From Oscillospiraceae bacterium (GTDB lineage Bacteria; Bacillota; Clostridia; Oscillospirales; Oscillospiraceae): a DNA stretch of 64,000 bases. The stretch is taken from NCBI GenBank assembly GCA_022793095.1, contig JAAWCD010000002.1, forward strand, positions 13,037 to 77,036. Reading direction: 5' to 3'. This document shows, one piece after another, positions 7,913 to 60,573 of the stretch. The position numbers and the translations under genes are program-made. Within the stretch, counting starts at the first letter, position 1; each line of letters starts with the position of its first letter. The notes below the pieces were generated by a model. The model was given only the letters and a program-made list of their open reading frames with translations, ran no database searches and was not told the origin of the DNA.

Positions 7913-8689
7913 TTGAAAAAGCTTCTTGCGCTGCTCATGGTTTTGGAGCTGCTCCTTTTGACCGGGTGCAGCAGCCGGGACCTGGAGCTGCTTCTTGTCG
8001 AAGCGGCCTACAAGGTTGACGCCATCATAGACCTGGACGAACCTCTTTTCAGCGTGCCCCGGAGGGTCAGAATCGAAGGCGAGGTATACCGGACCGGATT
8101 TTACGGGGATCTGTGGGCGAAAAATCTGACCTTCACCGGGGAGGAGTACGAGGTCCGCGGAACCACCTTCCGCCGTCTGGACTGCGGAACGTTTGACTGT
8201 ATTCAGGCCGGCGTTGGCAGCAAAACCGGCGGGATGCTGTATTGTCTGGACTCCCAATGGGAAGAGGCCAAGGCCTATTACGAAGACCCGGAAAACTACA
8301 CCTATTACTGCGGAATCAACGTAAAGGAGTCCCGGGAAGAGGACAGGCAATACTTTGAAGTCGAAGACATGGACATCGAAAAATACGAGGCGCTGATGGG
8401 GCACGGCGGAGCTTTTGCCTACGACCCCTTCGACCCCGTCAAGAACAGGGCGTCGGAATTCAAAGAAGTCATCATAGATGCCGGCCCCTGGCCTTATATC
8501 AACTTTTTCAAAATAAGCAAGGACGGGATTCTGGAATCCTTTAAGGCATATTACTTTTTCATCCTGGATGGAACCATGTATCAGGCCCGCTATCACAATC
8601 TGAGCGAGGATTCCGTGTCCGCCGTGGAGGTCCCTGAGGAAACCGCCGCCTATTTCATCGAACTGGTGGAACGCCTCCAAACAGAATAA
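7913..8689 (+). CDS. hypothetical lipoprotein
   Basis: MKKLLALLMVLELLLLTGC lipobox signal peptide. TTG start with an upstream AAAGGCGGGG. No family recognised. Confidence 0.7.
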   Translation: MKKLLALLMVLELLLLTGCSSRDLELLLVEAAYKVDAIIDLDEPLFSVPRRVRIEGEVYRTGFYGDLWAKNLTFTGEEYEVRGTTFRRLDCGTFDCIQAGVGSKTGGMLYCLDSQWEEAKAYYEDPENYTYYCGINVKESREEDRQYFEVEDMDIEKYEALMGHGGAFAYDPFDPVKNRASEFKEVIIDAGPWPYINFFKISKDGILESFKAYYFFILDGTMYQARYHNLSEDSVSAVEVPEETAAYFIELVERLQTE

Positions 8690-8694
8690 CGTTT

Positions 8695-8735
8695 GTTCCT
8701 TTTCTTGAACGAAAAGGAACCGAACTTCAATCTGG
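8695..8735 (-). repeat. family A unit A1
   Basis: Plus strand: GTTCCTTTTCTTGAACGAAAAGGAAC (hairpin) + CGAACTTCAATCTGG (tail). Confidence 0.85.
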
Positions 8736-8755: not shown

Positions 8756-8798
8756 CAGCTTAAAGTTCTTTTGCTTCTTTTCTTTCAAGAAAAGGAGC
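8756..8798 (+). repeat. family A unit A2
   Basis: CAGCTTAAAGTTCTTTTG + GCTTCTTTTCTTTCAAGAAAAGGAGC. The stop codon of the FHA-SEDS gene (8785-8787) lies in the loop. Confidence 0.9.
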
Positions 8799-10814: not shown

Positions 10815-10872
10815 CAGCATAAAGTTCTTTTGCCTACTTTTCTTTCAAGAAAAGTAGGTCAAGAAAAGTAGG
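10815..10872 (+). repeat. family A unit A4 plus a 14-bp tandem copy of its 3' arm
   Basis: CAGCATAAAGTTCTTTTG + CCTACTTTTCTTTCAAGAAAAGTAGG (to 10858). TCAAGAAAAGTAGG is then repeated at 10859-10872. Confidence 0.9.
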
Positions 10873-11854: not shown

Positions 11855-11875
11855 GCCGCTTACCTCCTTTTTTCT

Positions 11876-11920
11876 GCCTCCTTTTCTTGAAGGAAAAGGA
11901 GGCAAAGAGCTTTAAACTGG
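11876..11920 (-). repeat. family A unit A5
   Basis: GCCTCCTTTTCTTGAAGGAAAAGGAGGC + AAAGAGCTTTAAACTGG. Confidence 0.9.
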
Positions 11921-14666: not shown

Positions 14667-14685
14667 AACTCACCTTCTTTTTTCT

Positions 14686-14912
14686 CTTCTTTTCTTGTAA
14701 GAAAAGAAGCCAGCTTGTCGAAAAAGAGGAAATTAAAAATAGAATGACAAAACTGCGAGGGCTTTGAGTGGGGGGATAGTGTGAAAGGGGGGCGAAGCCC
14801 CCGCTTTCGCGTGCAGTCACCCGCCCGCAGGCGACTGATTTCGTCAGAATGACGAAATCAGCTTCAGGCTGTCGACTTTGTCGACAGCCTGAAGCAAAAG
14901 AACTTCAAACTG
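14686..14912 (-). repeat. family A unit A7, split by family B copy B1
   Basis: Hairpin CTTCTTTTCTTGTAAGAAAAGAAG at 14686-14709. The tail AAGCAAAAGAACTTCAAACTG at 14892-14912 is separated from it by the 181-bp insertion. Confidence 0.85.
14711..14891 (-). mobile_element. family B 180-bp MITE-like element, copy B1
   Basis: About 90% or more identical by eye to the copies at 19949 and 38584. Termini are CAGCTTGTCGA...TCGACAGCCTG. Flanked by AAGC at 14707-14710 and 14892-14895. Confidence 0.85.
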
Positions 14913-18589: not shown

Positions 18590-19825
18590 ATGCTGATTCA
18601 AAATATCTGTATTGAGAACGCGCCCCAGGTCTTGGACATTCGGGTGACTGGCGGCAAATTCGAGGAAATTGCCGCCGGCCTCACCCCACGTCCGGGGGAA
18701 GAGGTCATCGACGGCGCCGGCAGGCTGGCCCTGCCGCCCTTTATCGAGTCCCATGTCCATCTGGACACCTGCCTCACCGCCGGAGAACCGGTGTGGAACC
18801 AGTCCGGCACCCTATTTGAGGGCATCCAGTGCTGGAGCCAGCGCAAGGAGGCCCTCACCAAGCAGGATGTACGGGACCGGGTGCAGCGGGCGGTACGCAT
18901 GCAGGCCCAGAACGGCGTGCAGTACGTCCGCACCCATGTGGACGTGACGGACCCCAAGCTCACCGCCATGGAGGCCCTGCTGGAGCTCCGGGAAGAACTG
19001 CGGGACACCATTGAAATTCAGGTGGTGGCCTTCCCCCAGGAGGGCATTGACTCCTTCCCCAACGGCCGGCAGCTGATGGAAGACGCGGTGAAGATGGGGG
19101 CCGATGTGGTGGGAGCCATTCCCCACTTTGAGTTTACGCGGGAATATGCGGTGGAGTCTCTGAACTTTGCCATGAAGCTGGCGGAGAAGTACGGCAAGCT
19201 GGTGGATGTCCACTGCGACGAGATTGACGACGAACAGAGCCGGGGGCTGGAGGTGCTGGCGGCCCGTGCCTACGAGTCCGGGCTGAAGGATCGGGTGACT
19301 GCCAGCCACACCACGGCCATGCACTCCTATAACAACGCCTATGTGACCAAGCTGATGCGTCTTTTGAAGCTGTCGGAGATCAATTTTGTCTCCAATCCCT
19401 TGGTGAACACCCATTTGCAGGGCCGGATGGACACCTATCCCAAGCGCCGGGGCGTCACGCGGGTGAAGGAGCTGCTGGCGGAGGGCATCAATGTGTCCTT
19501 CGGCCATGACGATATTTTCGACCCCTGGTATCCTCTGGGCACGGGCAATCTGCGGGATGTGGTCTTTTTGGGGCTTCACGTGTGTCAGATGATGGGCTAT
19601 CAGGAGATTATGGACTCCTACAAGCTCATTTCCACCAACGCGGCCAGGACCCTGCATCTGGGAGAGTCCTACGGAATTAAGGCGGGCAATCCGGCCAGCT
19701 TTTTAATTCTGGAGGGGGAGAATTTTTACGACGCTCTCAACCGGAAAGGGGAAGTGCTCTATTCCTTCAAAAACGGACGGCTCATCGCAAGGGCGGAGCC
19801 CGCAGTCCGGGAAGTGCTGTTTTGA
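18590..19825 (+). CDS. codA: cytosine deaminase (amidohydrolase superfamily)
   Basis: PPFIESHVHLDT metal-binding motif, and the length and sequence character of CodA. Confidence 0.87.
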   Translation: MLIQNICIENAPQVLDIRVTGGKFEEIAAGLTPRPGEEVIDGAGRLALPPFIESHVHLDTCLTAGEPVWNQSGTLFEGIQCWSQRKEALTKQDVRDRVQRAVRMQAQNGVQYVRTHVDVTDPKLTAMEALLELREELRDTIEIQVVAFPQEGIDSFPNGRQLMEDAVKMGADVVGAIPHFEFTREYAVESLNFAMKLAEKYGKLVDVHCDEIDDEQSRGLEVLAARAYESGLKDRVTASHTTAMHSYNNAYVTKLMRLLKLSEINFVSNPLVNTHLQGRMDTYPKRRGVTRVKELLAEGINVSFGHDDIFDPWYPLGTGNLRDVVFLGLHVCQMMGYQEIMDSYKLISTNAARTLHLGESYGIKAGNPASFLILEGENFYDALNRKGEVLYSFKNGRLIARAEPAVREVLF

Positions 19826-19913: not shown

Positions 19914-19948
19914 AAACTGCCCCTGCCGCATAGCGGCAGAGGCAGCTT
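19914..19948 (+). repeat. left copy of a 35-bp duplicated terminator hairpin flanking B2
   Basis: AAACTGCCCCTGCCGCATAGCGGCAGAGGCAGCTT versus 20129-20163 (33/35 identical, same loop orientation). Confidence 0.85.
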
Positions 19949-20128
19949 CAGGCTGTCGAAAACGCGACAGCCTGAAGCTGATTTCGTCATTCTGACGAAA
20001 TCAGTCGCCTGCGGGCGGGTCACTGCACGCGAAAGCGGGGGCTTCGCCCCCCTTTCACACTTTCCCCCCACGCAAAGTCCTGGCCGTTTTGCCATCCTAT
20101 TTTAACTTTCCTCTTGTTCGACAAGCTG
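19949..20128 (+). mobile_element. family B 180-bp MITE-like element, copy B2
   Basis: CAGGCTGTCGAAAACGCGACAGCCTGAAGCTGATTTCGTCATTCTGACGAAATCAG...GTTCGACAAGCTG. Confidence 0.85.
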
Positions 20129-20163
20129 AAACTGCCCCTGCCGCATAGCGGCAGGGGCAGTTT
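20129..20163 (+). terminator. right copy of the duplicated hairpin, likely the functional bidirectional terminator
   Basis: AAACTGCCCCTGCCGCATAGCGGCAGGGGCAGTTT. Perfect 13-bp stem flanked by A and T runs, 3 nt from the transketolase stop codon. Confidence 0.7.
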
Positions 20164-20166
20164 TCA

Positions 20167-21120
20167 TCATCTTCTTCCCTTTTTCAGGTCCATCGCCTTG
20201 CGGACAGCACTCATAATGCCCTCCGCGTTCAGGTGATAGGCGGCCAGCACCTTGGTGGCCTCGCCGGATCGCCCGAACTGGTCATTGACACCGTGGCGCA
20301 CCACCGGAACCGGGCAGACACTGGAAAGGTATTCACACACCGCGCCGCCCAGCCCGCAAAGCACATTAGCTTCCTCGCTGGTCACAATCGCGCCGGTCTC
20401 CTGTGCCGCCTTCAGCAGCAGATCCTCGTCCAGGGGCTTGATGGTGTGCATGTCAATGACCCGGACAGAAACGCCTTCGGCCTTCAGGGTATCTGCGGCC
20501 TTCACCGCCTCCTGAACCATCATGCCAGTGGCGGCCACTGTCACGTCGCTCCCCTCCCGGAGCACTGCGCCCTTGCCCAGCTCAAAGTGATAGCCCTCCA
20601 CATCGTCGGTGATGGAGTCCACTGCCAGACGGCCCAGCCGCATGTAAACCGGGCCCTTGTGCTCCATCAGCGCCTGAACTGCCAGCCGCATTTCCGGCCC
20701 GTCGCAGGGACACACCACCATCATATGGGGAATGGCACGCATAATGGCAAAGTCCTCAATACACTGATGGGTAGCCCCGTCTTCTCCCACGCTCAGACCG
20801 CCGTGAGATCCCACAATAGTCACATTCATCTGGGGATAGGCCACGGAGTTGCGGACCTGCTCAAAGGCCCGGCCGGTGGCAAACATGGCGAAGGTGTTGG
20901 TGAACACCTTCTTGCCGCAGGCGGCCAGACCGGCGGCTACGCCGGTCATGTTGGCCTCGGCAATGCCCAGATTGAAGAAGCGGTCCGGGAATTTGCCGGC
21001 AAATTTCTTGGACATGGTAGATCCGGACAGGTCTGCGTCCAGTACCACCAGTTCCGGATACCGCTCACCCAGAGCGGCCAGCGCCTCGCCATAGGCAGCG
21101 CGGGTAGCAATGTGTTCCAT
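20167..21120 (-). CDS. transketolase, C-terminal (pyrimidine-binding) subunit
   Basis: MEHIATRAAYGEALAALGERYPELVVLDADLSGST... The ATG at 21120 is preceded by GAGGAGGGGG. The track start at 21195 overlaps the upstream gene. Confidence 0.9.
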   Translation of the reverse strand: MEHIATRAAYGEALAALGERYPELVVLDADLSGSTMSKKFAGKFPDRFFNLGIAEANMTGVAAGLAACGKKVFTNTFAMFATGRAFEQVRNSVAYPQMNVTIVGSHGGLSVGEDGATHQCIEDFAIMRAIPHMMVVCPCDGPEMRLAVQALMEHKGPVYMRLGRLAVDSITDDVEGYHFELGKGAVLREGSDVTVAATGMMVQEAVKAADTLKAEGVSVRVIDMHTIKPLDEDLLLKAAQETGAIVTSEEANVLCGLGGAVCEYLSSVCPVPVVRHGVNDQFGRSGEATKVLAAYHLNAEGIMSAVRKAMDLKKGRR

Positions 21121-21985: not shown

Positions 21986-22000
21986 GTTTTTCTCCCTTCT

Positions 22001-22045
22001 CTTCTTTTTCTTGAAAGAAAAAGAAGCAAAAAGAACGTTAAACTG
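22001..22045 (-). repeat. family A unit A11
   Basis: CTTCTTTTTCTTGAAAGAAAAAGAAG + CAAAAAGAACGTTAAACTG. The hairpin ends 15 nt upstream of the ATG at 21985. Confidence 0.9.
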
Positions 22046-22157
22046 TTTCCTTGTAAAGTTGAACCTGGTGGATATCGCCGTTTTAGGGAACCGCTGATTA
22101 AACCGGCGTGCGCGGATTGGCGCGCAAATTTTTTGGTGGGGACGCTGAATTGATCTG

Positions 22158-26742: not shown

Positions 26743-29700
26743 TTATTCCACCGATTTCAACGACTCCACCATGTCGATCTTCCTGAGCTTCCGGTTGGCG
26801 AACAGGTTGACCAGCATGGAGAACAAAACCGTCAGCCCCACTGCATAGACATAGCTGATGGGCCGGGCGGACCGGCCGAACATCACCATGTCCACCTCCA
26901 CCGTGAGCACCAGCCACTGGTGCAGGAATTTGCCTATCACAAGCCCCAGCGCCACGCCGAAGAAGGTGAGCAGCACATTTTCCCGGTACACATAGGCCCC
27001 CATCTCCCGGTCGTTGAAGCCCAGCACCTTCAGTGTGGCCAGCTCCCGCATCCGCTCGGTGATGTTGATGTTCGTCAGGTTGAACAGCACCACAAAGGCC
27101 AGCGCTGCCGCGCACACGATAATCAGCACCACCGCATAATCCACGCTCTCCATGGAGGAGCTGAAGGTCCGCCGGGTGTTCTCCATCCGGGTCACTGACG
27201 TGACTCCGTCCAGAGCGATCAGCCCCGAGGACACCTGAGAGGACAGCTCCTCTGTGTTCTCCGTGTAGGAAATCAGAATCACGTTGTCCTCTGCCGCCTC
27301 GCCGAACAGCTCCTGATAATAGGCGTCGGTGAGATAGGCGTAGTGCATGATGTACTGTTCGGTCAGAGCCCCGATTTCCGCCTCCGCCCGGTGGTCGCCG
27401 TTGACCAGCGTAACCGTGTCGCCAATGCCCACGTCCAGCAGCTCCGCCAGCTTCTCCGTCATGAGCAGGCCCCGGTCCGGCAGGGAAACCGGCGCGTGGT
27501 CCAGCCGGGTCCGCAGCTTCACAAAGCCCTCCAGCTCCGCGCCGCTGCCCACCACAATCAGATTTCCGTCCATGGTGCGGGCAGCGCCCTCAAAGTCCAC
27601 CGCCGTCTGGTTGCAGGCCCGCCAGCGGGCCACCCGCTCGTCCTGGTCCAGCCAGTCCGCCACCTCCGCGAACTCTTCCTCGTCCCATTTGTTGACCAGC
27701 GCGGCCTGGGCGTGGTATTCGTAAAGCTCATCATACTGAATGGCCATGATGTCCAGAATAGAGTCCCGTATACCGAAGCCGGTCACAATCAAGGCCGTGC
27801 AGCCCGCGATGCCGATGACCGTCATCCAGAACCGGCGCTTGTAGCGGAACAGATTCCGCACCGTCACTTTGTGGGAAAAGGACAGCCGCTTCCACACAAA
27901 GCCCACCCGCTCCAGCAGCACCCGTTTGCCCGCTTTGGGTGCCTTGGGCCGCATGAGGGAGGCGGGACCGGCCCGGACCGCGTTCAGAGCCGCCGCCAGC
28001 ACCGCCACTGCGGTACAGCCCACCGCCGCCAGCACCGCCGCCCCGCAGATCCCCGGCTGGAAGGCGAACACCAGGCCGGGAATATTGTACATAATGCGCC
28101 AGGCGCGAATGATAACCCAGGGAATCAGGGTGCAGCCCACCGCCAGGCCCGCGATCCCGCCGGACACAGAGGCCAGCAGTCCGTAGCCCACATATTTCTG
28201 GGCGATGTCCCTCCTGGAGTAGCCCAGGGCCTTCAAGCAGCCGATCTGACTGCGCTGCTCCTCCACCATCCGGGTCATGGTGGTCAGGCACACCAGCGCC
28301 GCCACCAGGAAGAACAGCAGGGGAAACACAGAGGCCAGATTGCCCATCCGCTCCGCGTCCTGCTGGTAGCTGACAAAGCCAATGTTGGCCTTCCGGCCCA
28401 GCAGATACCATTCGCAGTCGTCCAGGCCGTTCACCTTCCGCCGGGCGTCCCGCAGCTCGCTTCGGGCGTCCGCCAGCCCGGTCTGGGCCTCCGCCTTGCC
28501 GTCCTCGTACTCCAAGAGGCCGCCGGCGTACTCCTGTTCGCCGTCCTCCAACTCTACCTTGGCGTCCGCCAGCTCCTTTCGGGCCTTGGCCGTCTCCTCG
28601 GCCAGCTCCCGCCGGCCGTCCGCCAGCTCCACAAGGCCGTCGTTGTACTCCTTCCAGCCGTCGTCCAGTTCCTGCCGGGCGTCCAGGAGCTCCTGTTTGG
28701 CGTCGTCCAGCTCCTTCCGGCCGTCCAAAATCTCCTGTTTGGCGTCATCCAGCTCTTTCCGGCCATCTTCCAGCTCCGCCCAGCCGTCATCCAGCTCTTT
28801 TTTCGCGTCAGTCAGCTCCTGGTCCGCTTCCGCCAGCTCCCTGGCCGCTTCGTCCAGCTCCCGCTTTCCCTCCGCCAGCTCGACTTCTCCGTCCGCCAGC
28901 TCCTGCTTGGCGCTGTCCAGCTCCTGTTTGGCCTCCGTCAGTTCTTCCGCGCCGGCCTCCAGCTCCTCCTTGGCCTCCCGCAGCTGCCGCCGGGCCTCCG
29001 CCAGCTCTTCTTCGCCGGCCTCCAGCTCCTCCTTGGCCTCGTCCAGCTGCTTTTTGGCTTCCGCCAGCTGCCGCCGGCCCGCCTCGTACTCGTCCGCGCC
29101 CGCCTGATATTGGGCGTAACCGGCGCTGTATTCCCGCTCGCCCGCGTCCAGCTGAGCGCGGCCCGCAGCGAGTCCCTGTTCGATTTGTGTGATGCCGCTG
29201 GAAATCTGGTCTACATAGCCCTGAGCCTGGGCCACTCCGGCGCTGGCCTGGTCCACATAGCCCTGGGCCGCGGCCACAGCCCCTACAGCCGCAGCGTAGG
29301 CCGGATCCGACGGGTCCAGACTGTTCAGATAGTCCTGCGCCTGGCTCAGCCCCGCTTCTGCCTGGGCCAGTCCTTCCTGCGCCTGGCTTAACCCGGTCTG
29401 GGCCAGGGGCAGCTGCTCCCGCAGGCTGCTCAGCTGGGCCTCCGCCCCGGCGGTCTGAGCATGATACTCCGCCCAGCCCGCGTCCAGCTGAGCACGGGCG
29501 TCCTGCAGCTGCCGCCAGGCGTCATTCAGCTGGGAATCCGCGCTGGACAACTCCCGTTGTCCCTCCTCGTATTCCTTCCGTCCGTCGTTGTACTCCGCCC
29601 AACCGTCCTCCAGCTTCTTGGCGCCGTTCTCGTAGTCTCTCTGACCGTCATAGTACGCCTTCCAGCCGTCCTGGATCCTCTTGAGGCCGTCCTCATACTC

Positions 29701-30972
29701 CTGTACCCCGTCAGCATACTCCTTCCAGCCCTCCTCCAGGTCCTTCTTTCCCTGCTCGTAGTCCCGAAGGCCCTCGGCGTACTTGACCCGGCCGTCCTCG
29801 TACTCCCTTACGCCCTCCAGGTACTTCTGCTCGCCATCCTTCCACTCCGCCAGGCCCCCGGCGTATTCCGCCTCGCCGTCCTCATATTCCTTGAGGCCAT
29901 CGGCGTACTCTTTTTCGCCGTCCTCGTACTCCAAAAGGCCGTCGGCATATTCCTTCTCGCCGTCCTCCAGCTCCACCTTGGCGTCCGCAAGCTCCTGCTC
30001 TCCGCCGGCCAGCTCCCGTTCCGCGTCCGCTGTTTCCCGCCGCAGGTCAGCCCAGCCCTGGTTGTATTCCTTCCACCCGTCGTCCAGCTCCTGCCGGCCA
30101 TCCGCCAGCTCCTGCGCCGCGTCCGCCAGCTCCTGGTTCACCTCGGCTTCCGCGTCGTCGTATTCCTTTTGGGCGTCCGCAAGCTTTTCCTCTGCCTCCT
30201 CCCGGATATCCTCGGAGCGAAGCCGGGCCCGCCCGTCGCCGAAGGCCTCGTTTTCATCCACCCAGCGGTCCACCAGCGCTTCGTAACCGTCGGAGTAGGC
30301 GTTCCGCTCCTTGGCCCCCTCCAGGGTGGCGTAAGCCTCGGTGTAGGCCTCCATGTCGAAGGCGTCCTTGGGCAGCAGAACAAAGCAGGACACATGCCCC
30401 GTGCCCAAAGAGGAGCTGCCCCGCTGGATGGATAAGTACAGGGGGGATTGACAGGTTCCCACCACCGTGAAGGACTCCCGAGTCAGAGCGTCCTCATAGG
30501 TTCCGGTCCCGGTGTTGATGGTGATGGACACGCCCAGGTCCGCCTCCATGGCCTCCAGCAGGGATTCCTCGGTCAGGCATTCGCCGGGGTTTTCCGGCAG
30601 GCGGCCCCGAATCAGGTTGGGCTGATTGAGGCCCTGTTCGCTGAGGGATACCACCTTGACCGCCAGGTCGTTGTCCCCCACGGGCACCAGTCCGTCGGCG
30701 GTGTAGGCTCCCTCTGCGGCGAGCACGCCGGGCCGGGCGGCCAGGGCGTCAATGTCCTCCTGGGTGATGCCCAGCGTGGCCATAATTTGAATGTCCATCA
30801 TGTTCTGCCGGTCCAGGTAGGCGTCAGCGGTGGCCTCCATGTCCGGGGCGGTGGTCCTCAGTCCGGCCAGAAAGGCCACGGCCAGTGCCACCAGCACAAA
30901 AATGGAAATGAAGCGGCTCCGGGTCTTGCTGATTTCCCGGAACAGATCTTTTTTCAGCGCCTGTTTTGCCAT
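26743..30972 (-). CDS. FtsX/MacB-type ABC transporter permease with a ~600-aa coiled-coil insertion
   Basis: N-terminal TM segment and MacB-like extracytoplasmic domain, a long heptad-repeat segment, then two FtsX-type TM bundles. The ATG at 30972 (MAKQALKK) lies 4 nt after the ATPase stop. The TTG at 30987 is the alternative start. Confidence 0.9.
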   Translation of the reverse strand: MAKQALKKDLFREISKTRSRFISIFVLVALAVAFLAGLRTTAPDMEATADAYLDRQNMMDIQIMATLGITQEDIDALAARPGVLAAEGAYTADGLVPVGDNDLAVKVVSLSEQGLNQPNLIRGRLPENPGECLTEESLLEAMEADLGVSITINTGTGTYEDALTRESFTVVGTCQSPLYLSIQRGSSSLGTGHVSCFVLLPKDAFDMEAYTEAYATLEGAKERNAYSDGYEALVDRWVDENEAFGDGRARLRSEDIREEAEEKLADAQKEYDDAEAEVNQELADAAQELADGRQELDDGWKEYNQGWADLRRETADAERELAGGEQELADAKVELEDGEKEYADGLLEYEDGEKEYADGLKEYEDGEAEYAGGLAEWKDGEQKYLEGVREYEDGRVKYAEGLRDYEQGKKDLEEGWKEYADGVQEYEDGLKRIQDGWKAYYDGQRDYENGAKKLEDGWAEYNDGRKEYEEGQRELSSADSQLNDAWRQLQDARAQLDAGWAEYHAQTAGAEAQLSSLREQLPLAQTGLSQAQEGLAQAEAGLSQAQDYLNSLDPSDPAYAAAVGAVAAAQGYVDQASAGVAQAQGYVDQISSGITQIEQGLAAGRAQLDAGEREYSAGYAQYQAGADEYEAGRRQLAEAKKQLDEAKEELEAGEEELAEARRQLREAKEELEAGAEELTEAKQELDSAKQELADGEVELAEGKRELDEAARELAEADQELTDAKKELDDGWAELEDGRKELDDAKQEILDGRKELDDAKQELLDARQELDDGWKEYNDGLVELADGRRELAEETAKARKELADAKVELEDGEQEYAGGLLEYEDGKAEAQTGLADARSELRDARRKVNGLDDCEWYLLGRKANIGFVSYQQDAERMGNLASVFPLLFFLVAALVCLTTMTRMVEEQRSQIGCLKALGYSRRDIAQKYVGYGLLASVSGGIAGLAVGCTLIPWVIIRAWRIMYNIPGLVFAFQPGICGAAVLAAVGCTAVAVLAAALNAVRAGPASLMRPKAPKAGKRVLLERVGFVWKRLSFSHKVTVRNLFRYKRRFWMTVIGIAGCTALIVTGFGIRDSILDIMAIQYDELYEYHAQAALVNKWDEEEFAEVADWLDQDERVARWRACNQTAVDFEGAARTMDGNLIVVGSGAELEGFVKLRTRLDHAPVSLPDRGLLMTEKLAELLDVGIGDTVTLVNGDHRAEAEIGALTEQYIMHYAYLTDAYYQELFGEAAEDNVILISYTENTEELSSQVSSGLIALDGVTSVTRMENTRRTFSSSMESVDYAVVLIIVCAAALAFVVLFNLTNINITERMRELATLKVLGFNDREMGAYVYRENVLLTFFGVALGLVIGKFLHQWLVLTVEVDMVMFGRSARPISYVYAVGLTVLFSMLVNLFANRKLRKIDMVESLKSVE
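28432..30225 (-). repeat. coding heptad-repeat region (E-Y/L-x-D-G-x-x type)
   Basis: Residues ~255-852 (numbered from the 30987 start) form runs such as EYADGLL EYEDGEK EYADGLK EYEDGEA... and KELDDAK QEILDGR KELDDAK QELLDAR. A non-repeat tip lies around SLDPSDP (~res 555-562). Confidence 0.9.
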
Positions 30973-30976
30973 GCTG

Positions 30977-31678
30977 TCACCACTCAATCTCTTCCACCGG
31001 GGTGGGGTTGCCGTTGAGCTCCATAGCGGCGACCTTGCCGCTATGGATGTGGATGACCCGGTCGGCCATGGGGGTCAGCGCGGTGTTGTGGGTGATGACC
31101 ACCACAGTGACGCCCTTCTGGCGGCAGGTGTCCTGCAAGAGCTTCAAAATGGCCTTGCCGGTCACGTAGTCCAGGGCGCCGGTGGGCTCGTCGCAGAGAA
31201 GGAGCTTGGGGTTTTTGGCCAGGGCCCGGGCGATGGCCACCCGCTGCTGCTCGCCGCCGGAGAGCTGGGCGGGGAAGTTGTTCTTCCGGCCGGCCAGCCC
31301 CACATGGTCCAGCACACCGGCGGCGTCCAGAGGGTCCCGGCAGATCTGGGCGGCCAGCTCCACGTTTTCCAGGGCGGTCAGGTTCTGGACCAGGTTGTAG
31401 AACTGGAAAACGAAGCCGATATCATACCGGCGGTAGTTGGTCAGCTCCTTGGCGTTGTACCGGCTGACCTCCGCGCCGTCCACCAGAATCGCGCCGGAGG
31501 TGGCGGAGTCCATGCCGCCCAGAAGGTTTAGCACAGTGGTCTTGCCCGCGCCGGAGGGGCCGACGATGACCACGAACTCGCCCTTTTCCAGGGAAAAGGA
31601 GATATCCTCCACCGCAGTGATGGTGACCTCTCCCATTTGATATTGTTTTACAACATGTTCCAGTGTAATAAATGACAT
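30977..31678 (-). CDS. ABC transporter ATP-binding protein (MacB/LolD-like)
   Basis: [13 protein letters not shown]..., [29 protein letters not shown]. The ATG at 31678 is preceded by GGGAG. Confidence 0.92.
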
Positions 31679-31704
31679 GTGATTCGCTCCCGTACCGTTT
31701 TTCT

Positions 31705-31749
31705 CCACTTTTTCTTGAAAGAAAAAGTGGCAAAAAGAACTTTAAGCTG
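31705..31749 (-). repeat. family A unit A13
   Basis: CCACTTTTTCTTGAAAGAAAAAGTGG + CAAAAAGAACTTTAAGCTG. Confidence 0.9.
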
Positions 31750-31887
31750 ATTCTTGCAAGAAAAATCAAGGCTTACAGATTTTTTGGGCGGGGGAATAAG
31801 AGCCTATCCCAGAATTCGGCGTGCACAGATTGCGCCGTCAGATTTTTCGTCAAGGGACGCCAAATGTGAACTGTTTTTGAACACCTG

Positions 31888-34783: not shown

Positions 34784-35902
34784 ATGACACACCGTAAAAC
34801 CTCACTGGTCCTTGCGGCGCTTTTATCCCTGTCCCTTCTGACCTCCTGCGGCGGGCAGAGCCCCCAGGAGACGGACAATTCCGGCGGCTCTGTCCCCCCG
34901 GCCGCCTCGGTGGAACCCACCCAGCCCCCCGACACCCCCGCGCCGGCCCTGCCGGACACTCCCGCGCCCACAGAGACCCTCCCGCTGGAGACGGATGCAC
35001 CCGCTGAAACGGCGCCTGTGGAGACCGCTCCGGCAGAGGACGGTGAAATTCGCTTGACCCTGAACAAGACGGATGTGACCCTGTACGCGGCCGGGAAAAG
35101 CTTCACCCTCAAGCCCAAGCCGGAAGGCGTGCCGGAGGGCTCTGCACTGGCTTTGAGCTGGTCCTCCAGCGACGAGTCGGTGGCCAAGGTGGAGAGCAGC
35201 GTTGGCGGTCTTTCCGCGGTTGTCACCGCCGTAGGACCGGGCACCGCCACCATCACCGCCAGACCGGTCAATTCCACGGCAGTGGATGATCCGCTTACCG
35301 TGAGCTGCATTGTGCGCTGCCGCTGGACCGAGGAGAGCCCGGAGCCTTCCACGCCCGCTGTGACCCCCACCTCCGCACCGGTGGAAACGCCTCCTGTGGA
35401 GACCGCGCCCCCCACCTCCGCACCGGTGGAAACGCCTCCTGTGGAGACCGCGCCCCCCACCTCCGCGCCGGTGGAAACGACTCCTGTGGAGACCGCGCCG
35501 CCCGCGCCTGCCTCCGCCGATTTGACCAAGTTCTACGAGAATACAATGAGCAAGTATGAGTTTGGCTTCCTGGAGCTGGCGGATGCCGGGCTTGTGGACA
35601 ATTTTTATTCCGGCCTGAGCGGCATCCCTACGGAGCAATGTCTGGTGTACATCTGTATGATGAGCATGAACAACGGTGAATTTGTTCTGGTTCAGGTAAA
35701 GGACAGCGGCGATGTGCCCGCCGTCAAGGATATTTTGCAGGCGCGGGTTGACAGCATGGTGGACGGCGGAGCCTGGTATCCTGCTGCCATAGAGCAGTGG
35801 GAGCTTAATTCCCGCGTGGTTTCCAATGGGAATTACGTCATGATGGTGGTCCACGAGAACGCGGACAGCATCGTTTCCGAGTTCAACACGTTTACCAGCT
35901 GA
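34784..35902 (+). CDS. lipoprotein with Big_2-like Ig domain, Pro/Thr repeat linker and DUF4358-like C-terminal domain
   Basis: Lipobox LSLLTSC. SWSSSDESVAKVE...VTAVGPGTATITA is a Big_2 signature. Three 15-aa repeats follow. The C-terminal domain family is recalled, not verified. Confidence 0.8.
   Translation: MTHRKTSLVLAALLSLSLLTSCGGQSPQETDNSGGSVPPAASVEPTQPPDTPAPALPDTPAPTETLPLETDAPAETAPVETAPAEDGEIRLTLNKTDVTLYAAGKSFTLKPKPEGVPEGSALALSWSSSDESVAKVESSVGGLSAVVTAVGPGTATITARPVNSTAVDDPLTVSCIVRCRWTEESPEPSTPAVTPTSAPVETPPVETAPPTSAPVETPPVETAPPTSAPVETTPVETAPPAPASADLTKFYENTMSKYEFGFLELADAGLVDNFYSGLSGIPTEQCLVYICMMSMNNGEFVLVQVKDSGDVPAVKDILQARVDSMVDGGAWYPAAIEQWELNSRVVSNGNYVMMVVHENADSIVSEFNTFTS
35368..35502 (+). 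repeat. 45-bp x 3 in-frame tandem repeat
   Basis: Units start at 35368, 35413 and 35458 (CACCTCCGCACCGGTGGAAACGCCTCCTGTGGAGACCGCGCCCCC). They encode TSAPVETPPVETAPP. Confidence 0.95.
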
Positions 35903-36009: not shown

Positions 36010-37410
36010 GTGGTCTTTTCCAGCCTTTATTTTCTGTTCCTCTATCTTCCGGCAGTGCTGGCGGCCTACTATCTGGCCCCGCTCCGGTGGCGAAACGCTG
36101 TTTTGCTGGTCCTCAACCTCATCTTCTACGGCTGGGGTGAGCCGGTCTATATCCTCATCATGTTCGCCTCCATCGCGATCGACTACACCCATGGCATGCT
36201 TGTGGCCCGCGCCAAGCAGCACGGCAACGACAAGGCCGCACGGCTGGCCGTGGCCTCCTCTGTCATTTTCAATCTGGGCCTCCTCTTCTTCTTCAAGTAC
36301 TGGGACTTTATCGCTGGAAGCCTGCCGGCCATCGGCCTGGGCTTCATGCCCAAGCTGGGCCTGGAACTGCCCATCGGCATTTCCTTCTACACCTTCCAGA
36401 CCATGAGCTACACCATCGACGTCTACCGGGGCGATGCGCGGGAACAGCGGAACATTGTCACCTTCGGCACCTTTGTCACCCTGTTCCCCCAGCTCATCGC
36501 CGGCCCCATCATCAAATACAAGGACCTGGACGGCCAGCTGGAACAGCGGAACCACACGGTGGAGCGCTTTGCCTCGGGTATTCAGCGTTTTATGGTGGGC
36601 CTGGGCAAAAAGGTCCTGCTGGCCAACCGCCTGGGCGCCCTGTGGGATGTCTATCTGGCCACGCCAGGCGCGGATCTCACCACCCTTGGGGCCTGGCTTG
36701 GCATTTTGGCCTTTACTCTTCAGCTCTACTTCGACTTCTCCGGCTACTCCGACATGGCTATCGGCCTGGGCCGGATGCTGGGCTTTGAGTTTCTTGAAAA
36801 CTTCAACTACCCCTACCTTGCCAAGTCGGCCACCGAATTCTGGCGGCGCTGGCACATTTCTCTGGGGACCTGGTTCCGGGAATACCTCTACATCCCCTTG
36901 GGCGGAAACCGGGTGGGAAAGGCCCGGCTGGTGTTCAACCTGATGCTGGTCTGGGCGGCAACCGGAATCTGGCATGGGGCCAGCTGGAATTTCTTGATTT
37001 GGGGCCTCTTTTACGGCGTCATCATTTTAATCGAAAAGCTGTTCCTGCTCAGGCAGCTGGACAAACTCCCCGGCTGGGCGGGCCATGTGTACGGTCTGTT
37101 TGTGGTCATGGTGGGCTGGGCCATTTTCGCTGTGGAGGACTTCACCGCCCTGGGCCTCTACTTGAAGGCCATGTTCGGCTTCGGGGCGGGGCTGATGGAC
37201 AACACATGCCTGTACTATTTCCGGGATTATCTGCCCACCCTGGTTTTGGCGGCAGTGGGTTCCACGCCTGTGGTGGCCGCATTGTGGCGGAAGCTGCCGG
37301 AACGGGCTTGGAAGGCCGCTCTGCCTGTGCTGATTCTGGCGGGTCTTATCTGGTCCACCGCCTATCTGGTGGATGGGAGTTACAATCCCTTCCTCTATTT
37401 CCGTTTCTAA
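36010..37410 (+). CDS. MBOAT-family membrane O-acyltransferase (AlgI/DltB-like)
   Basis: (M)VFSSLYFLFLYLP..., FWRRWHISL histidine motif. GTG start. Confidence 0.92.
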   Translation: MVFSSLYFLFLYLPAVLAAYYLAPLRWRNAVLLVLNLIFYGWGEPVYILIMFASIAIDYTHGMLVARAKQHGNDKAARLAVASSVIFNLGLLFFFKYWDFIAGSLPAIGLGFMPKLGLELPIGISFYTFQTMSYTIDVYRGDAREQRNIVTFGTFVTLFPQLIAGPIIKYKDLDGQLEQRNHTVERFASGIQRFMVGLGKKVLLANRLGALWDVYLATPGADLTTLGAWLGILAFTLQLYFDFSGYSDMAIGLGRMLGFEFLENFNYPYLAKSATEFWRRWHISLGTWFREYLYIPLGGNRVGKARLVFNLMLVWAATGIWHGASWNFLIWGLFYGVIILIEKLFLLRQLDKLPGWAGHVYGLFVVMVGWAIFAVEDFTALGLYLKAMFGFGAGLMDNTCLYYFRDYLPTLVLAAVGSTPVVAALWRKLPERAWKAALPVLILAGLIWSTAYLVDGSYNPFLYFRF

Positions 37411-37423
37411 AGGAGGCGCGCCC

Positions 37424-38551
37424 ATGTCCAAACGGTATTCCATCTTTTTAACTGCCCTGTTCTGCCTGTTTCTCTTCGGTTTCGGTGCGCTCCATCTCGC
37501 CCTGCCGGACCGGACCTTCTCCGAGCAGGAAAACCGCAACCTCGCCCAGTTTAAGGCCCCTACGGCGAAAACTCTGCAATCCGGCAAGTTTATGGAGGAT
37601 TTTCAGGACTATGTCACCGACCAGTTCCCTCTGCGGGACAGCTTTGTGGCCCTGAAGGCCCTCACAGAACGGGGGCTTGGCAAGCGGGAGAACAACGGGG
37701 TCTATCTGAGCCGGGACGGGCAGACCTTATTCGCCCAATTTACCGCGCCCTCCAAGGATGATTTGGCACAGCGGGTCGGTTATGTCAACAAGCTGGCGGA
37801 TAATCTCTCTGTTCCCGTCTATTTTTCCCTGATTCCGGACAAAAGCCGGTTGTGGGCGGACCGCCTGCCGGCCAACGCGCCTCGGGTGGACGACGGCTCC
37901 ACCATCGCCGCAGCGGAACCCCTTTGCTCGGATCAGGTTTGTTGGATTGACCTGAGCGGCGCCCTGCATGGGGATGACATTTTCTACCGCACAGACCACC
38001 ATTGGACCACAATGGGCGCTTACCAGGGCTATCTGGGGCTTTCCTCCGGCATGGGGGGATCGGGGGCGGTATTTGATTATCCCTATGTTCTGCGGTCTGA
38101 CTCCTTTTACGGAACCACCTGGTCTTCCTCCGGCGCATCCTGGGTGAAGCCAGATGAACTGTACTCTGTGATTCCCGAGGGCGGGGAGTACGGCAGAATC
38201 ACCGTTACTTCTTACCGGGACGGCGCGCCGGAGGCGGGAAGCCTCTATGATGAAAGCTTCTTGGAGAAAAAGGACAAGTACTCCTTCTTTCTGGGGGGCA
38301 ATCAGCCCCTGTGCGTCATCTCCAATCCGGACGCCAAGGGCGGGAAGCTACTGGTGGTGCGGGACTCCTATTCCGACGCTCTGGCGCCCTTCCTGGCACT
38401 GGAATTTCAGGAGGTTCACCTTTTTGACCTGCGGTACAACCGGACTTCCCTCAAGCAGTATGTGGAGGAAAACGGCATCGGCCAAGTGCTGGTCCTCTAC
38501 TCCCTCGCCAATTTTACAACCGACGGAAACCTGTTCCTTCTGGGACGGTGA
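37424..38551 (+). CDS. DHHW-family protein (AlgJ/AlgX-like partner of MBOAT)
   Basis: N-terminal TM segment. YRTDHHWTTMGAY motif. GGAGG precedes the ATG at 37424. Confidence 0.85.
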   Translation: MSKRYSIFLTALFCLFLFGFGALHLALPDRTFSEQENRNLAQFKAPTAKTLQSGKFMEDFQDYVTDQFPLRDSFVALKALTERGLGKRENNGVYLSRDGQTLFAQFTAPSKDDLAQRVGYVNKLADNLSVPVYFSLIPDKSRLWADRLPANAPRVDDGSTIAAAEPLCSDQVCWIDLSGALHGDDIFYRTDHHWTTMGAYQGYLGLSSGMGGSGAVFDYPYVLRSDSFYGTTWSSSGASWVKPDELYSVIPEGGEYGRITVTSYRDGAPEAGSLYDESFLEKKDKYSFFLGGNQPLCVISNPDAKGGKLLVVRDSYSDALAPFLALEFQEVHLFDLRYNRTSLKQYVEENGIGQVLVLYSLANFTTDGNLFLLGR

Positions 38552-38554
38552 CAA

Positions 38555-38583
38555 AAGCCCGGCAGCCAATTGACTGCCGGGCT
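38555..38583 (+). repeat. left copy of a 29-bp duplicated terminator hairpin flanking B3
   Basis: AAGCCCGGCAGCCAATTGACTGCCGGGCT versus 38764-38792 (28/29). Confidence 0.85.
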
Positions 38584-38763
38584 CAGGCTGTCGAGTTTCT
38601 CGACAGCCTGAAGCTGATTTCGTCATTCTGACGAAATCAGTCGCCTGCGGGCGGGTGACTGCACGCGAAAGCGGGGGCTCTGCCCCCCTTTCACACTATC
38701 CCCCCACTCAAAGCCCTCGCAGTTTTGTCATCCTATTTTTAATTTCCTCTTTTTTGACAAGCT
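38584..38763 (+). mobile_element. family B 180-bp MITE-like element, copy B3
   Basis: CAGGCTGTCGAGTTTCTCGACAGCCTGAAGCTGATTTCGTCATTCTGACGAAATCAG...TTTTGACAAGCT. Confidence 0.85.
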
Positions 38764-38792
38764 AAGCCCGGCAGTCAATTGACTGCCGGGCT
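38764..38792 (+). terminator. right copy of the duplicated hairpin (followed by TTTTT)
   Basis: AAGCCCGGCAGTCAATTGACTGCCGGGCT + TTTTC. Confidence 0.7.
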
Positions 38793-38876: not shown

Positions 38877-38916
38877 TTAAAGTTCTTTTGCCTACTTTTC
38901 TTTCAAGAAAAGTAGG
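38877..38916 (+). repeat. family A unit A14
   Basis: TTAAAGTTCTTTTG + CCTACTTTTCTTTCAAGAAAAGTAGG. 39 nt are identical to A4. It ends 1 nt before the ricT stop. Confidence 0.9.
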
Positions 38917-40111: not shown

Positions 40112-40140
40112 AATCGCGTTCCTCGTTTTCTTCCGTTTTT

Positions 40141-40186
40141 CTTCTTTTTCTTGAAAGAAAAAGAAGTAAAAAGAGCTTTATACTGG
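40141..40186 (-). repeat. family A unit A15
   Basis: CTTCTTTTTCTTGAAAGAAAAAGAAG + TAAAAAGAGCTTTATACTGG. Confidence 0.9.
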
Positions 40187-40189
40187 TTT

Positions 40190-41167
40190 CTACTGAATGA
40201 TTTCCGCACATTCGGCGCACAGCTGTCCCATCAGGTGCCCCCCGCCCACATGAAACGCGCAGGCAGGTCCCACCTGGTCCATCACTTCCTTCAGCCGCAG
40301 GAGCTGGCTTTTGGTCAGGCTGGCGGCCAGGCTTTCAGCGATTCTTTTCCGGTCCGGGTCAAGCTCGCCGCCGCCCACCAGGGCGTCCCGGAGCAGGAGG
40401 CCGCAGGATTCTGCGAAGGTCTCCAGCTCTTCCCGGCTGCATTTCTCCATGCCCACGGCACATTCCACGAGGGGCAGCTCCTTCCGGCCCGCCAAATGGC
40501 CGCAGAAGGCCAGCGCCAATTCCCGGCCCCGGCTGTCCTCGCTACCGGCCCCGCTCAGCTCCTCCACCGCCGCACCTAAAATGCCCTCACACCGGACGGC
40601 AGCAGCTGCCAGCGCCTCCTCCGGCTGGTCCGGAAACCGGCGGCGCAGCTCGTCCAGGGTCTCGCCGTAGGTAAGAGGGGAAAGGGTCAGCTCCACACAA
40701 CGGGACCGGACCGTCTCCAGCAGAGTCTCCGAAGGCCCGGTAATCATCAGAAAGGCCGCGTAAGCCGGCCCATCCTCCAGCAGCTTGAGCAGGGCATTCT
40801 GGGCGCTGGAGTTCATGCTTCCGGCGTTTTCCACCAGGTAGACCTTCCGGTCCCCCTCGTTGGGCCGGATGTAGGCATCCGACCGCAGGGACCGGACCGC
40901 GTCCACCTTCACGTCCTTGCCGTCGCCGCCCACCCGAATCAGGTCGGGATGGATGCCCGCCGCGGCCTTCCGGCAGTGGACGCAGGTTCCGCAGGGACGC
41001 GCTCCAGACCCGGAGCATAACAGCGCCTGGGCCAGGCAGAGGGCCAGGGTCCGCCGGCCTGAACCGGCAGGCCCGCTGATGATGTAAGCATGGGACAGAT
41101 CCCGCCCGCCGGCAGCGCCCAGCAGCTTTTTTAAAGATGCGTTGCCCGCCAATGTGTCTAAATTCAT
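40190..41167 (-). CDS. holB: DNA polymerase III subunit delta-prime
   Basis: SHAYIISGPAGSGRRTLALCLAQALLC...CGTCVHCRK zinc module. Synteny with ricT and darA. ATG at 41167 (MNLDTL). Confidence 0.87.
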   Translation of the reverse strand: MNLDTLAGNASLKKLLGAAGGRDLSHAYIISGPAGSGRRTLALCLAQALLCSGSGARPCGTCVHCRKAAAGIHPDLIRVGGDGKDVKVDAVRSLRSDAYIRPNEGDRKVYLVENAGSMNSSAQNALLKLLEDGPAYAAFLMITGPSETLLETVRSRCVELTLSPLTYGETLDELRRRFPDQPEEALAAAAVRCEGILGAAVEELSGAGSEDSRGRELALAFCGHLAGRKELPLVECAVGMEKCSREELETFAESCGLLLRDALVGGGELDPDRKRIAESLAASLTKSQLLRLKEVMDQVGPACAFHVGGGHLMGQLCAECAEIIQ

Positions 41168-41207: not shown

Positions 41208-41246
41208 GTTCTTTTTTGGTTCTTTTTCCTTCAAGAAAAAAGAACC
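41208..41246 (+). repeat. family A unit A16a (tail truncated)
   Basis: GTTCTTTTTTG + GTTCTTTTTCCTTCAAGAAAAAAGAACC. Confidence 0.75.
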
Positions 41247-41254
41247 GGCAGTTT

Positions 41255-41290
41255 CTCTTCTTTTCTTGAAGGAAAAGAACTTCAAACTGG
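41255..41290 (-). repeat. family A unit A16b (internal deletion)
   Basis: CTCTTCTTTTCTTGAAGGAAAAGAACTTCAAACTGG. Confidence 0.75.
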
Positions 41291-45434: not shown

Positions 45435-45458
45435 GTAATAGCCTCCAAAGTTTCTTCC

Positions 45459-45501
45459 CTTCTTTTCTGGAATGAAAAGAAGCAAAAGAACTTCAAACTG
45501 G
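45459..45501 (-). repeat. family A unit A18
   Basis: CTTCTTTTCTGGAATGAAAAGAAG + CAAAAGAACTTCAAACTGG. Confidence 0.9.
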
Positions 45502-45595
45502 CGTACCGCGGCAGTTTTCAAGGAGCGCTTTGCCCTCAGGACGGCCCGGCGGGGTCATTGGGCTCTACAGAGCTGCGCTGACTGACAGATAACCG

Positions 45596-46671: not shown

Positions 46672-46714
46672 CAGTTTAAAGTTCTCTTGCTTTTTTTCTT
46701 GAAAGAAAAGAAGC
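46672..46714 (+). repeat. family A unit A20
   Basis: CAGTTTAAAGTTCTCTTG + CTTTTTTTCTTGAAAGAAAAGAAGC, about 155 nt upstream of dnaA. Confidence 0.85.
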
Positions 46715-46748
46715 AGCGAATTTTTTATTTTTCTCTGGCGAATTTTTG

Positions 46749-59599: not shown

Positions 59600-59622
59600 A
59601 GAATCCCTCCACTTCATGTTAT

Positions 59623-59662
59623 CTTCTTTTCTTGAAAGAAAAGAAGCAAAAGAACTTTTTGC
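59623..59662 (-). repeat. family A unit A22 (tail truncated)
   Basis: CTTCTTTTCTTGAAAGAAAAGAAG + CAAAAGAACTTTTTGC. Confidence 0.85.
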
Positions 59663-59962
59663 AAAACGTTGTTTTGCTTTAACAACACATGTGTTCATTA
59701 TATACCTGCATTCGACAAATTTCAAGGAGGACAAGGAGAAATAAAAATCAGAGTTCCATTTTCCCATATATTTTTTGGATGTGAGCCTGCTATGAGGAAA
59801 GCCCATATCCATTGAAAGAAAGTTGCTTTTCAACGGGTGTTCCTTTATAATAATTTCGCCGGTAAATCCAGATTTATCGAAAGGATGCTGTAATGTTAAT
59901 TTGCGTTGCTTGCCGCAACGGGTTATTCTCCGTATAATAGCAGTGAAAGGAGGCCGTCCCTG

Positions 59963-60535: not shown

Positions 60536-60573
60536 CAAGTTCTTTTTGCTTCTTTTTCTTGCAAGAAAAAGAA
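60536..60573 (+). repeat. family A unit A23
   Basis: CAAGTTCTTTTTG + CTTCTTTTTCTTGCAAGAAAAAGAA. It ends at the base before the aspS stop codon. Confidence 0.85.

Follow-up and report, generated by a model that had tools for sequence, protein, structure and literature searches.

A previously undescribed IS1182-family MITE flanked by duplicated terminator hairpins in an Oscillospiraceae bacterium

Insertion sequences (ISs) of the IS1182 family are listed in the ISfinder family table with direct repeats of 0-60 bp. IS1272, the best-studied member of the family, is found in staphylococci and targets stem-loops without sequence specificity, and these stem-loops are often confirmed terminators (PMC4923244, PMC5678879). 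Insertion of IS1272 deletes or replaces the stem-loop and leaves no target duplication (PMC5678879, PMC4923244). The model put forward for this element also has a pathway in which the stem-loop would be duplicated in full, when the 3' ends of the element are joined to the cruciform at its 5' feet (PMC5678879, Fig. 13 pathway b). Targeting of palindromes by IS1182-family members is, in the accounts given by PMC4923244 and PMC5678879, attributed to Siguier 2015. A further member, ISPse1, which was captured in a trap plasmid, has 4-bp direct repeats (PMC3281130, Table 2).

Here we describe a short repeat, family B, from an Oscillospiraceae MAG. "The window" denotes the whole stretch of DNA that was analysed, 64,000 nucleotides in length. 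Family B is a previously undescribed IS1182-family MITE. It shares with classical MITEs (Correia, RUP, MITEAba12) a small size, the lack of coding capacity, terminal inverted repeats, target duplications, multiple intergenic copies and, presumably, mobilisation in trans. Classical MITEs, however, make a fixed short duplication of 2-9 bp, whereas the length of the family B duplication follows the target palindrome (4, 28-29 or 35 bp). Family B also resembles IS1272 and TnSha1 in its choice of a stem-loop target, often an intrinsic terminator. IS1272 replaces or partly deletes the stem-loop, but family B and its relatives in the Bacillales duplicate it.

Family B copies and their flanks

Three copies of family B are present in the window. 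Copy B2 (19949-20128, plus strand) is 180 bp long and lies between the convergent genes for a cytosine deaminase (18590-19825, plus strand) and a transketolase C subunit (20167-21120, minus strand). Copy B3 (38584-38763, plus strand) is found directly 3' of a gene of the DHHW family (37373-38551). Copy B1 (14711-14891, minus strand) is 181 bp long and is located in an ABC transporter operon, where it separates the gene for the substrate-binding protein from that for the permease and lies within a unit of a second repeat, family A. A preliminary description of this DNA had listed three near-identical copies of about 180 bp. That count holds: a 51-nt core of family B occurs exactly three times in the window compared to zero occurrences expected by chance, blastn with relaxed settings found no further copy in the window, full or partial, and pairwise identity among B1, B2 and B3 was 89-95%. 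Most of the differences map to two places, the first hairpin's loop and the final third of the element, and the central 70 nt are nearly invariant between copies.

The termini of family B are CAGGCTGTCGA ... TCGACAAGCTG; B3 reads TTGACAAGCT. In B2, the left inverted repeat (IRL, CAGGCTGTCGA) opens a terminal hairpin (19949-19974, plus strand) in which a variable loop is followed by an internal inverted copy of the IRL; this module is common to ISs of the IS1182 family. The right inverted repeat (IRR, TCGACAAGCTG) occupies 20118-20128 on the plus strand. A second hairpin has the sequence CTGATTTCGTCATTCTGACGAAATCAG. Family B is thus short and non-coding, with terminal inverted repeats, target duplications and several dispersed copies, as expected of a MITE. 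We file it as a MITE and not as an IS because its 180 bp are non-coding and the window holds no match to a transposase.

Direct comparison of the flanks showed that B2 is bracketed by 35-bp direct copies of one sequence. The left copy (19914-19948) is a complete bidirectional terminator hairpin with a T-run on the minus strand, and the right copy (20129-20163) has a perfect stem followed by a T-run on the plus strand. There are two differences between them, both substitutions in the left copy. Read on the minus strand, the right copy begins one base past the stop codon of the transketolase gene. The target duplication at B3 measures 28-29 bp. Its left copy (38555-38583) is a terminator hairpin with one substitution and its right copy (38764-38792) is a perfect palindrome followed by a T-run; compared as 29-bp direct copies, they differ only at that position in the left copy. 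The duplicates at B2 and B3 are 94-97% identical and are locus-specific. At B1, the sole flanking repeat is GCTT on the minus strand, a 4-bp target duplication with one copy on the IRL side (14892-14895) and one on the IRR side (14707-14710). The B1 site lies between the long and the short hairpin of the family A unit. Duplication lengths within family B are therefore 35 bp (B2), 28-29 bp (B3) and 4 bp (B1), a sample of two hairpin duplications and one 4-bp case. These comparisons agree with the hairpin-length direct duplications first reported at B2 (35 bp) and B3 (29 bp) and with the flank of only 4 bp reported for B1 inside the family A unit. An asymmetry remarked on at the same time is correct: the mismatches are in the left copies and the T-runs described are in the right copies. 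On the minus strand, however, a T-run is retained by the left copies.

The duplicated sequences had been taken to derive from the target, and a comparison with empty sites had been called for. For B3 this comparison was made on a relative, not a same-species strain: a Logan contig that encodes a DHHW protein 91% identical to that of the window. The orthologous site in this contig contains one hairpin (aaaaacccggcagtcatggactgccgggtttttt) right after the stop codon, with no element and no second hairpin. Since a single hairpin is present where the element is absent, the second hairpin came with the insertion, and the origin of the duplication in the target is borne out. No empty site was found for B1 or for B2; in the case of B2, close homologues of the cytosine deaminase (88-90% identical) and of the transketolase C subunit (85-87%) have other neighbours.

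The B2 locus is present also in assembly GCA_949507905.1. All ten contigs that encode an identical transketolase carry the element at the 3' end of the gene, and eight of the ten (among L016-L024, from Logan and ENA) break off inside the MITE, 45-130 nt past the gene. Such breaks show that these genomes hold the element in multiple copies and that it disrupts short-read assembly.

When a bidirectional terminator is the target, the left copy retains the A-run after insertion and the right copy the T-run. The left hairpin copy of B2 scores as a minus-strand terminator, and in every case the element is followed by a terminator on the minus strand. Because the left copy keeps the minus-strand T-run and the right copy the plus-strand T-run, transcription from either flank is expected to cross the MITE before it stops. 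The duplicated terminators alter the 3' ends of the adjoining genes. Both stem substitutions in the left copies (19914-19948 and 38555-38583) create A·C mismatches on the plus strand and G·U wobbles on the minus strand. This pattern fits retained minus-strand termination, at n = 2 and with a chance of 1 in 4, which is not significant.

Relationship to IS1182-family insertion sequences

The key search was made with the terminal hairpin alone, as the pattern CAGGCTGTCG-N7-CGACAGCCTG, against metagenome contigs, plasmids and viral contigs. A Brevibacillus borstelensis plasmid (L057) also contains the 27-bp left module of family B, and about 115 bp downstream of the module is a gene annotated "IS1182 family transposase". 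The transposase of this IS, the one scanned for domains, is encoded by two frameshifted ORFs with DUF772, DDE_Tnp_1_6 and DDE_Tnp_1 domains, and the right end of the IS (TCGACAGCCTG) is a perfect inverted repeat of its left end. Six more plasmid copies are related to the Brevibacillus IS, from B. pumilus, B. subtilis, Alkalihalophilus pseudofirmus (two copies), B. wiedmannii and B. anthracis pXO1. Three of the six are annotated as IS1182; for the remaining three, the plasmid gene table, which is incomplete, lists no gene at the position of the match.

The ends of these ISs closely resemble those of family B. Each of the six related copies begins with CAGGCTGTCGA or with a variant in which one or two bases are changed, followed by the internal inverted copy, and the family B IRL is identical at 11 of 11 positions to those of the annotated IS1182-family ISs of B. 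borstelensis, B. pumilus and B. subtilis (L057, L059 and L060, respectively). The IRRs of the six are CTACAAGCTG (B. pumilus and B. subtilis), TCAACAATCTG or CCAACACTCTG. The family B IRR (TCGACAAGCTG) is very similar to CTACAAGCTG and may be compared also to TCGACAGCCTG. Family B and the ISs of B. subtilis and B. pumilus have the same difference between their two ends, with GC at positions 4-5 of the IRL and CT in the IRR. Over 16 MITE and IS left ends, the terminal hairpin shows covariation in its stem, with compensatory change at three pairs; the observed covariation score was reached in 0 of 500 shuffles, and controls in which the register was slid collapsed.

Family B therefore has the terminal inverted repeats of the IS1182 family (IRL, internal inverted copy and IRR) and the stem-loop targeting of that family, and its direct repeats vary in length up to tens of bp (35, 28-29 and 4 bp). 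The 4-bp repeats of ISPse1 match the length of GCTT at B1. What family B lacks is the DDE transposase of the family, with DUF772 and DDE_Tnp_1_6. A tblastn search of the 64-kb window with three intact IS1182 transposases as queries found no IS1182-family transposase, and no further inverted-repeat matches were present in the window outside the three family B copies. Beyond the termini, no similarity was detected between the 180 bp and the Bacillales ISs. A search for an autonomous partner with the same termini had been suggested; a family with these termini next to an IS1182-family transposase gene does exist, but no such partner was found in the window or genome, and the ISs found with the same ends are distant ones of the Bacillales.

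A complete terminator-like hairpin is directly duplicated around six of the seven plasmid ISs inspected, over 17-32 bp. The duplicated sequence is AGGGCGCTCTGCGCCCC (17 bp) in B. borstelensis (L057), AAGGTCCTAAGTATTTCTTTAGGACCTT (28 bp) in B. pumilus (L059), ACAGCAATTAAATTGCTGT (19 bp) in B. subtilis (L060), ACCACATCTATTGATGTGGT (20 bp) in A. pseudofirmus (L061), TAAAGACTATCGTCTTTT (18 bp) in B. wiedmannii (L062) and ATAAAAACGACATATTTATATGTCGTTTTTAT (32 bp) in B. anthracis pXO1 (L064). As at B2 and B3, the A-run in all six lies beyond the left copy and the T-run beyond the right one. The seventh IS (L063, A. pseudofirmus plasmid NZ_CP117836) has two different hairpins at its ends and no duplication, which may reflect recombination between copies or a replacement-type event. 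The premise that classical IS or MITE transposition gives no variable duplications of stem-loops is contradicted by six of these seven full-length ISs. The hairpin-length duplications at B2 and B3 represent this behaviour in a passenger element. This removes an apparent anomaly, as variable target duplications of hairpin length are a signature of IS1182-family transposition and not of a new insertion mechanism.

Taken as a group, the IS1182-family ISs of Bacillota (ISBspe1-like and IS660-like; Brevibacillus, Bacillus and Alkalihalophilus plasmids, pXO1) are like family B in the IRL, in the internal inverted copy and in a similar IRR. They likewise insert into terminator-like palindromes and duplicate the entire hairpin (17-32 bp, compared to 28-35 bp in family B). 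In contrast to these ISs, family B is 180 bp long and non-coding, has an unrelated interior made of further hairpins and resides in an Oscillospiraceae MAG.

Two additional contigs carry the module in other settings. A plasmid of Paenibacillus rhizovicinus (L058, 3001-3200) has a truncated IS1182-like left end, in which the module and about 140 bp are homologous to the Brevibacillus IS. This left end is fused to unrelated sequence. It is preceded by a hairpin, CTGACGTCGG...CCGGCGTCAG, with CTT in between, an arrangement also seen in B1 and B2. In a distant, high-GC contig (L032), the module lies about 200 bp from an ORF weakly similar to the IS1182-family transposases.

Mechanism of insertion and alternative explanations

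Very probably, family B is a non-autonomous derivative (MITE) of an IS1182-family IS that has both family ends and is moved in trans, by the transposase of a full-length relative, into hairpins that can be extruded. A DDE transposase of the DUF772 and DDE_Tnp_1_6 type, encoded by such a relative elsewhere in the genome, would supply the activity. The enzyme would prefer palindromes that extrude as cruciforms, in practice intrinsic terminators, and the two 3'-OH ends of the element would be joined to both strands at the 5' feet of the stem-loops. Repair of the gaps would then copy the whole palindrome to both sides, so that the target duplication would have the length of the hairpin (35 and 28-29 bp). 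At a site that does not extrude, a basal stagger of about 4 bp would be seen alone, as at B1. We know of no biochemical demonstration of cruciform attack by an IS1182-family transposase. The collected cases are natural examples of whole-stem-loop duplication, one branch of the IS1272 model, and could guide the biochemistry of cruciform-directed DDE transposition. Of two mechanisms suggested in the preliminary description, structure-directed insertion by staggered cuts at the bases of a hairpin is supported and matches the model published for the IS family (PMC5678879); nothing supports the other, a template switch during replication.

A more specific proposal is made tentatively and may well prove wrong. 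One clade of IS1182-family DDE transposases might attack the four-way junction of the cruciform with a constant stagger of about 4 bp, in which case the length of the duplication would equal that of the extruded palindrome and B1 would be a product of the same reaction without extrusion. The duplicated terminators would split their function, one direction each, and both flanking genes would gain the MITE as a 3'-UTR. If this is true, the natural insertions would be the first systematic evidence for junction attack by that clade.

The element might instead be primarily a functional structured RNA or a 3'-UTR module, for instance an sRNA gene that relies on the adjacent terminator, and owe its spread and its paired hairpins to selection or recombination and not to transposition. 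Strong structure on both strands (z about -12), the minus-strand terminator that always follows the element and the near-invariance of the central 70 nt would all suit such a role. However, no Rfam family was found at the gathering threshold, and at E<=10 there were only spurious matches to miRNA-like hairpins. No sigma-70-like promoter was predicted in B2 or B3, and those near B1 are weak. The duplicated flanks and the terminal hairpin contribute much of the folding energy, covariation support is restricted to the terminal hairpin, and the inverted termini and target duplications are signatures of transposition. We consider a primary RNA function unlikely, although family B may have a secondary, co-opted RNA role. 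Less probable again is insertion by some other structure-specific enzyme, either a Cas1-like integrase or casposase or a tyrosine or HUH enzyme that acts on hairpins, with an incidental likeness to IS1182 ends. Cas1-Cas2 duplicates a palindrome of about 30 bp, the CRISPR repeat, which the duplications around family B resemble, and tblastn found no transposase in the local window. The staggered attack at both borders of a ~30-bp, often palindromic unit in Cas1-Cas2 repeat duplication or casposon integration is an analogy only; those enzymes belong to another family, and the family B termini match a DDE transposon. An incidental likeness is also difficult to reconcile with an IRL that is identical at all 11 positions in three annotated IS1182-family ISs beside transposase genes and one or two bases off in the rest, or with an internal inverted copy and IRR signature common to ISs of this family that show the same duplications. 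To our knowledge, IS200/IS605 and IS110 elements make no hairpin-length duplications.

It is extremely improbable that two tandem hairpins pre-existed at each site and that the element landed between them, a formal possibility raised in the preliminary description for which no evidence was found. For B3, the single hairpin at the orthologous site contradicts it. The duplicates are 94-97% identical and locus-specific, and the same pattern recurs at the unrelated hairpins of six ISs and of another MITE (L026, below).

Several other mobile elements were tried and rejected. Stem-loop replacement of the IS1272 type was rejected because B2 and B3 each have the hairpin at either end. Class C group II introns, IS110/IS1111 and IS1397 (REP or terminator targets) also prefer sites at or beside intergenic stem-loops. 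Their insertion duplicates little or no target and is not known to duplicate a whole hairpin, and their ends and enzymes are unlike those of family B. A class C group II intron or its remnant was rejected because the Rfam search found no group II RNA and the ends match IS1182; a hairpin-associated element of the IS200/IS605 or IS110/IS1111 type, which would have family-specific ends, an HUH or DEDD enzyme and no target duplication, was rejected because of the long target duplications and ends that match a DDE IS family. Four further candidates were dropped once the IS1182 ends had been found: one-ended transposition like that of IS91 or Helitrons, integron attC or Xer/dif-type recombination, retro-insertion by target-primed reverse transcription, and Cas1-like integration.

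Distribution, related small elements and other repeats

The whole 191-bp element had no blastn match in plasmids and phages. A core of 27-28 nt had one match in 185,579 species representatives, in an Oscillibacter MAG (L001), and none in JGI metagenomes or in viral contigs; the element itself is rare in these collections. The Oscillibacter copy is cut at a contig end, and its left end again abuts a terminator hairpin. The terminal-hairpin pattern likewise had no matches in viral contigs.

In metagenome contigs, the exact left module CAGGCTGTCGA-loop-TCGACAGCCTG also occurs in at least three further families of small non-coding elements, whose interiors are unrelated and composed of chains of hairpins (L026; L029, L034, L040, L042 and L054; L031, L035, L038, L043 and L046; L041). 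These elements occur in GC-rich and in AT-rich contigs, mostly at contig ends, and in most of them the module directly adjoins a hairpin that is specific to the locus and lies right after a gene. The conserved 27-bp terminal module (CAGGCTGTCGA, loop, TCGACAGCCTG) provides a search handle for IS1182-derived MITEs that annotation pipelines have missed. In L026 (8346-8735), a complete MITE of 317 bp is flanked by a duplicated hairpin of 32 bp; with nine adjacent bases, the duplication (8346-8386 and 8690-8735) is 41 bp. The nine extra bases are TTTTGACAA, lie upstream of the hairpin and resemble the conserved right-end motif of that element family, TTTTTTGACAA.... There is no homology further upstream of TTTTGACAA, and the nine bases may be either target or remnant.

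Family A, the repeat into which B1 is inserted, is an abundant short interspersed repeat with at least 17 sites in the window. It consists of CAGTTTAAAGTTCTTTTGC followed by an AT-rich hairpin, TTCTTTTCTTGAAAGAAAAGAA, and a ribosome-binding site and start codon usually follow it closely. Examples are found at 8760-8798, 10820-10858, 11864-11902, 14672-14710, 21996-22051, 31699-31755 and 38878-38916, and further examples at 40135-40191, 41213-41279, 45442-45503, 46673-46724, 59606-59667 and 60536-60574. The units at 10820-10858 and 38878-38916 are identical. Family A may represent a module of 5'-UTRs or promoters, or else a further mobile repeat.

Two repeats of a different kind lie in coding regions of the window. 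Dozens of diverged repeats with a periodicity of 21 nt (7 codons) extend over 28423-30193, in an ORF of 1414 aa (26743-30987, minus strand), which suggests that the product is a heptad-repeat or coiled-coil surface protein. Three near-perfect tandem repeats of 45 bp (CCCCCACCTCCGCACCGGTGGAAACGCCTCCTGTGGAGACCGCGC...) are present at 35364-35503.
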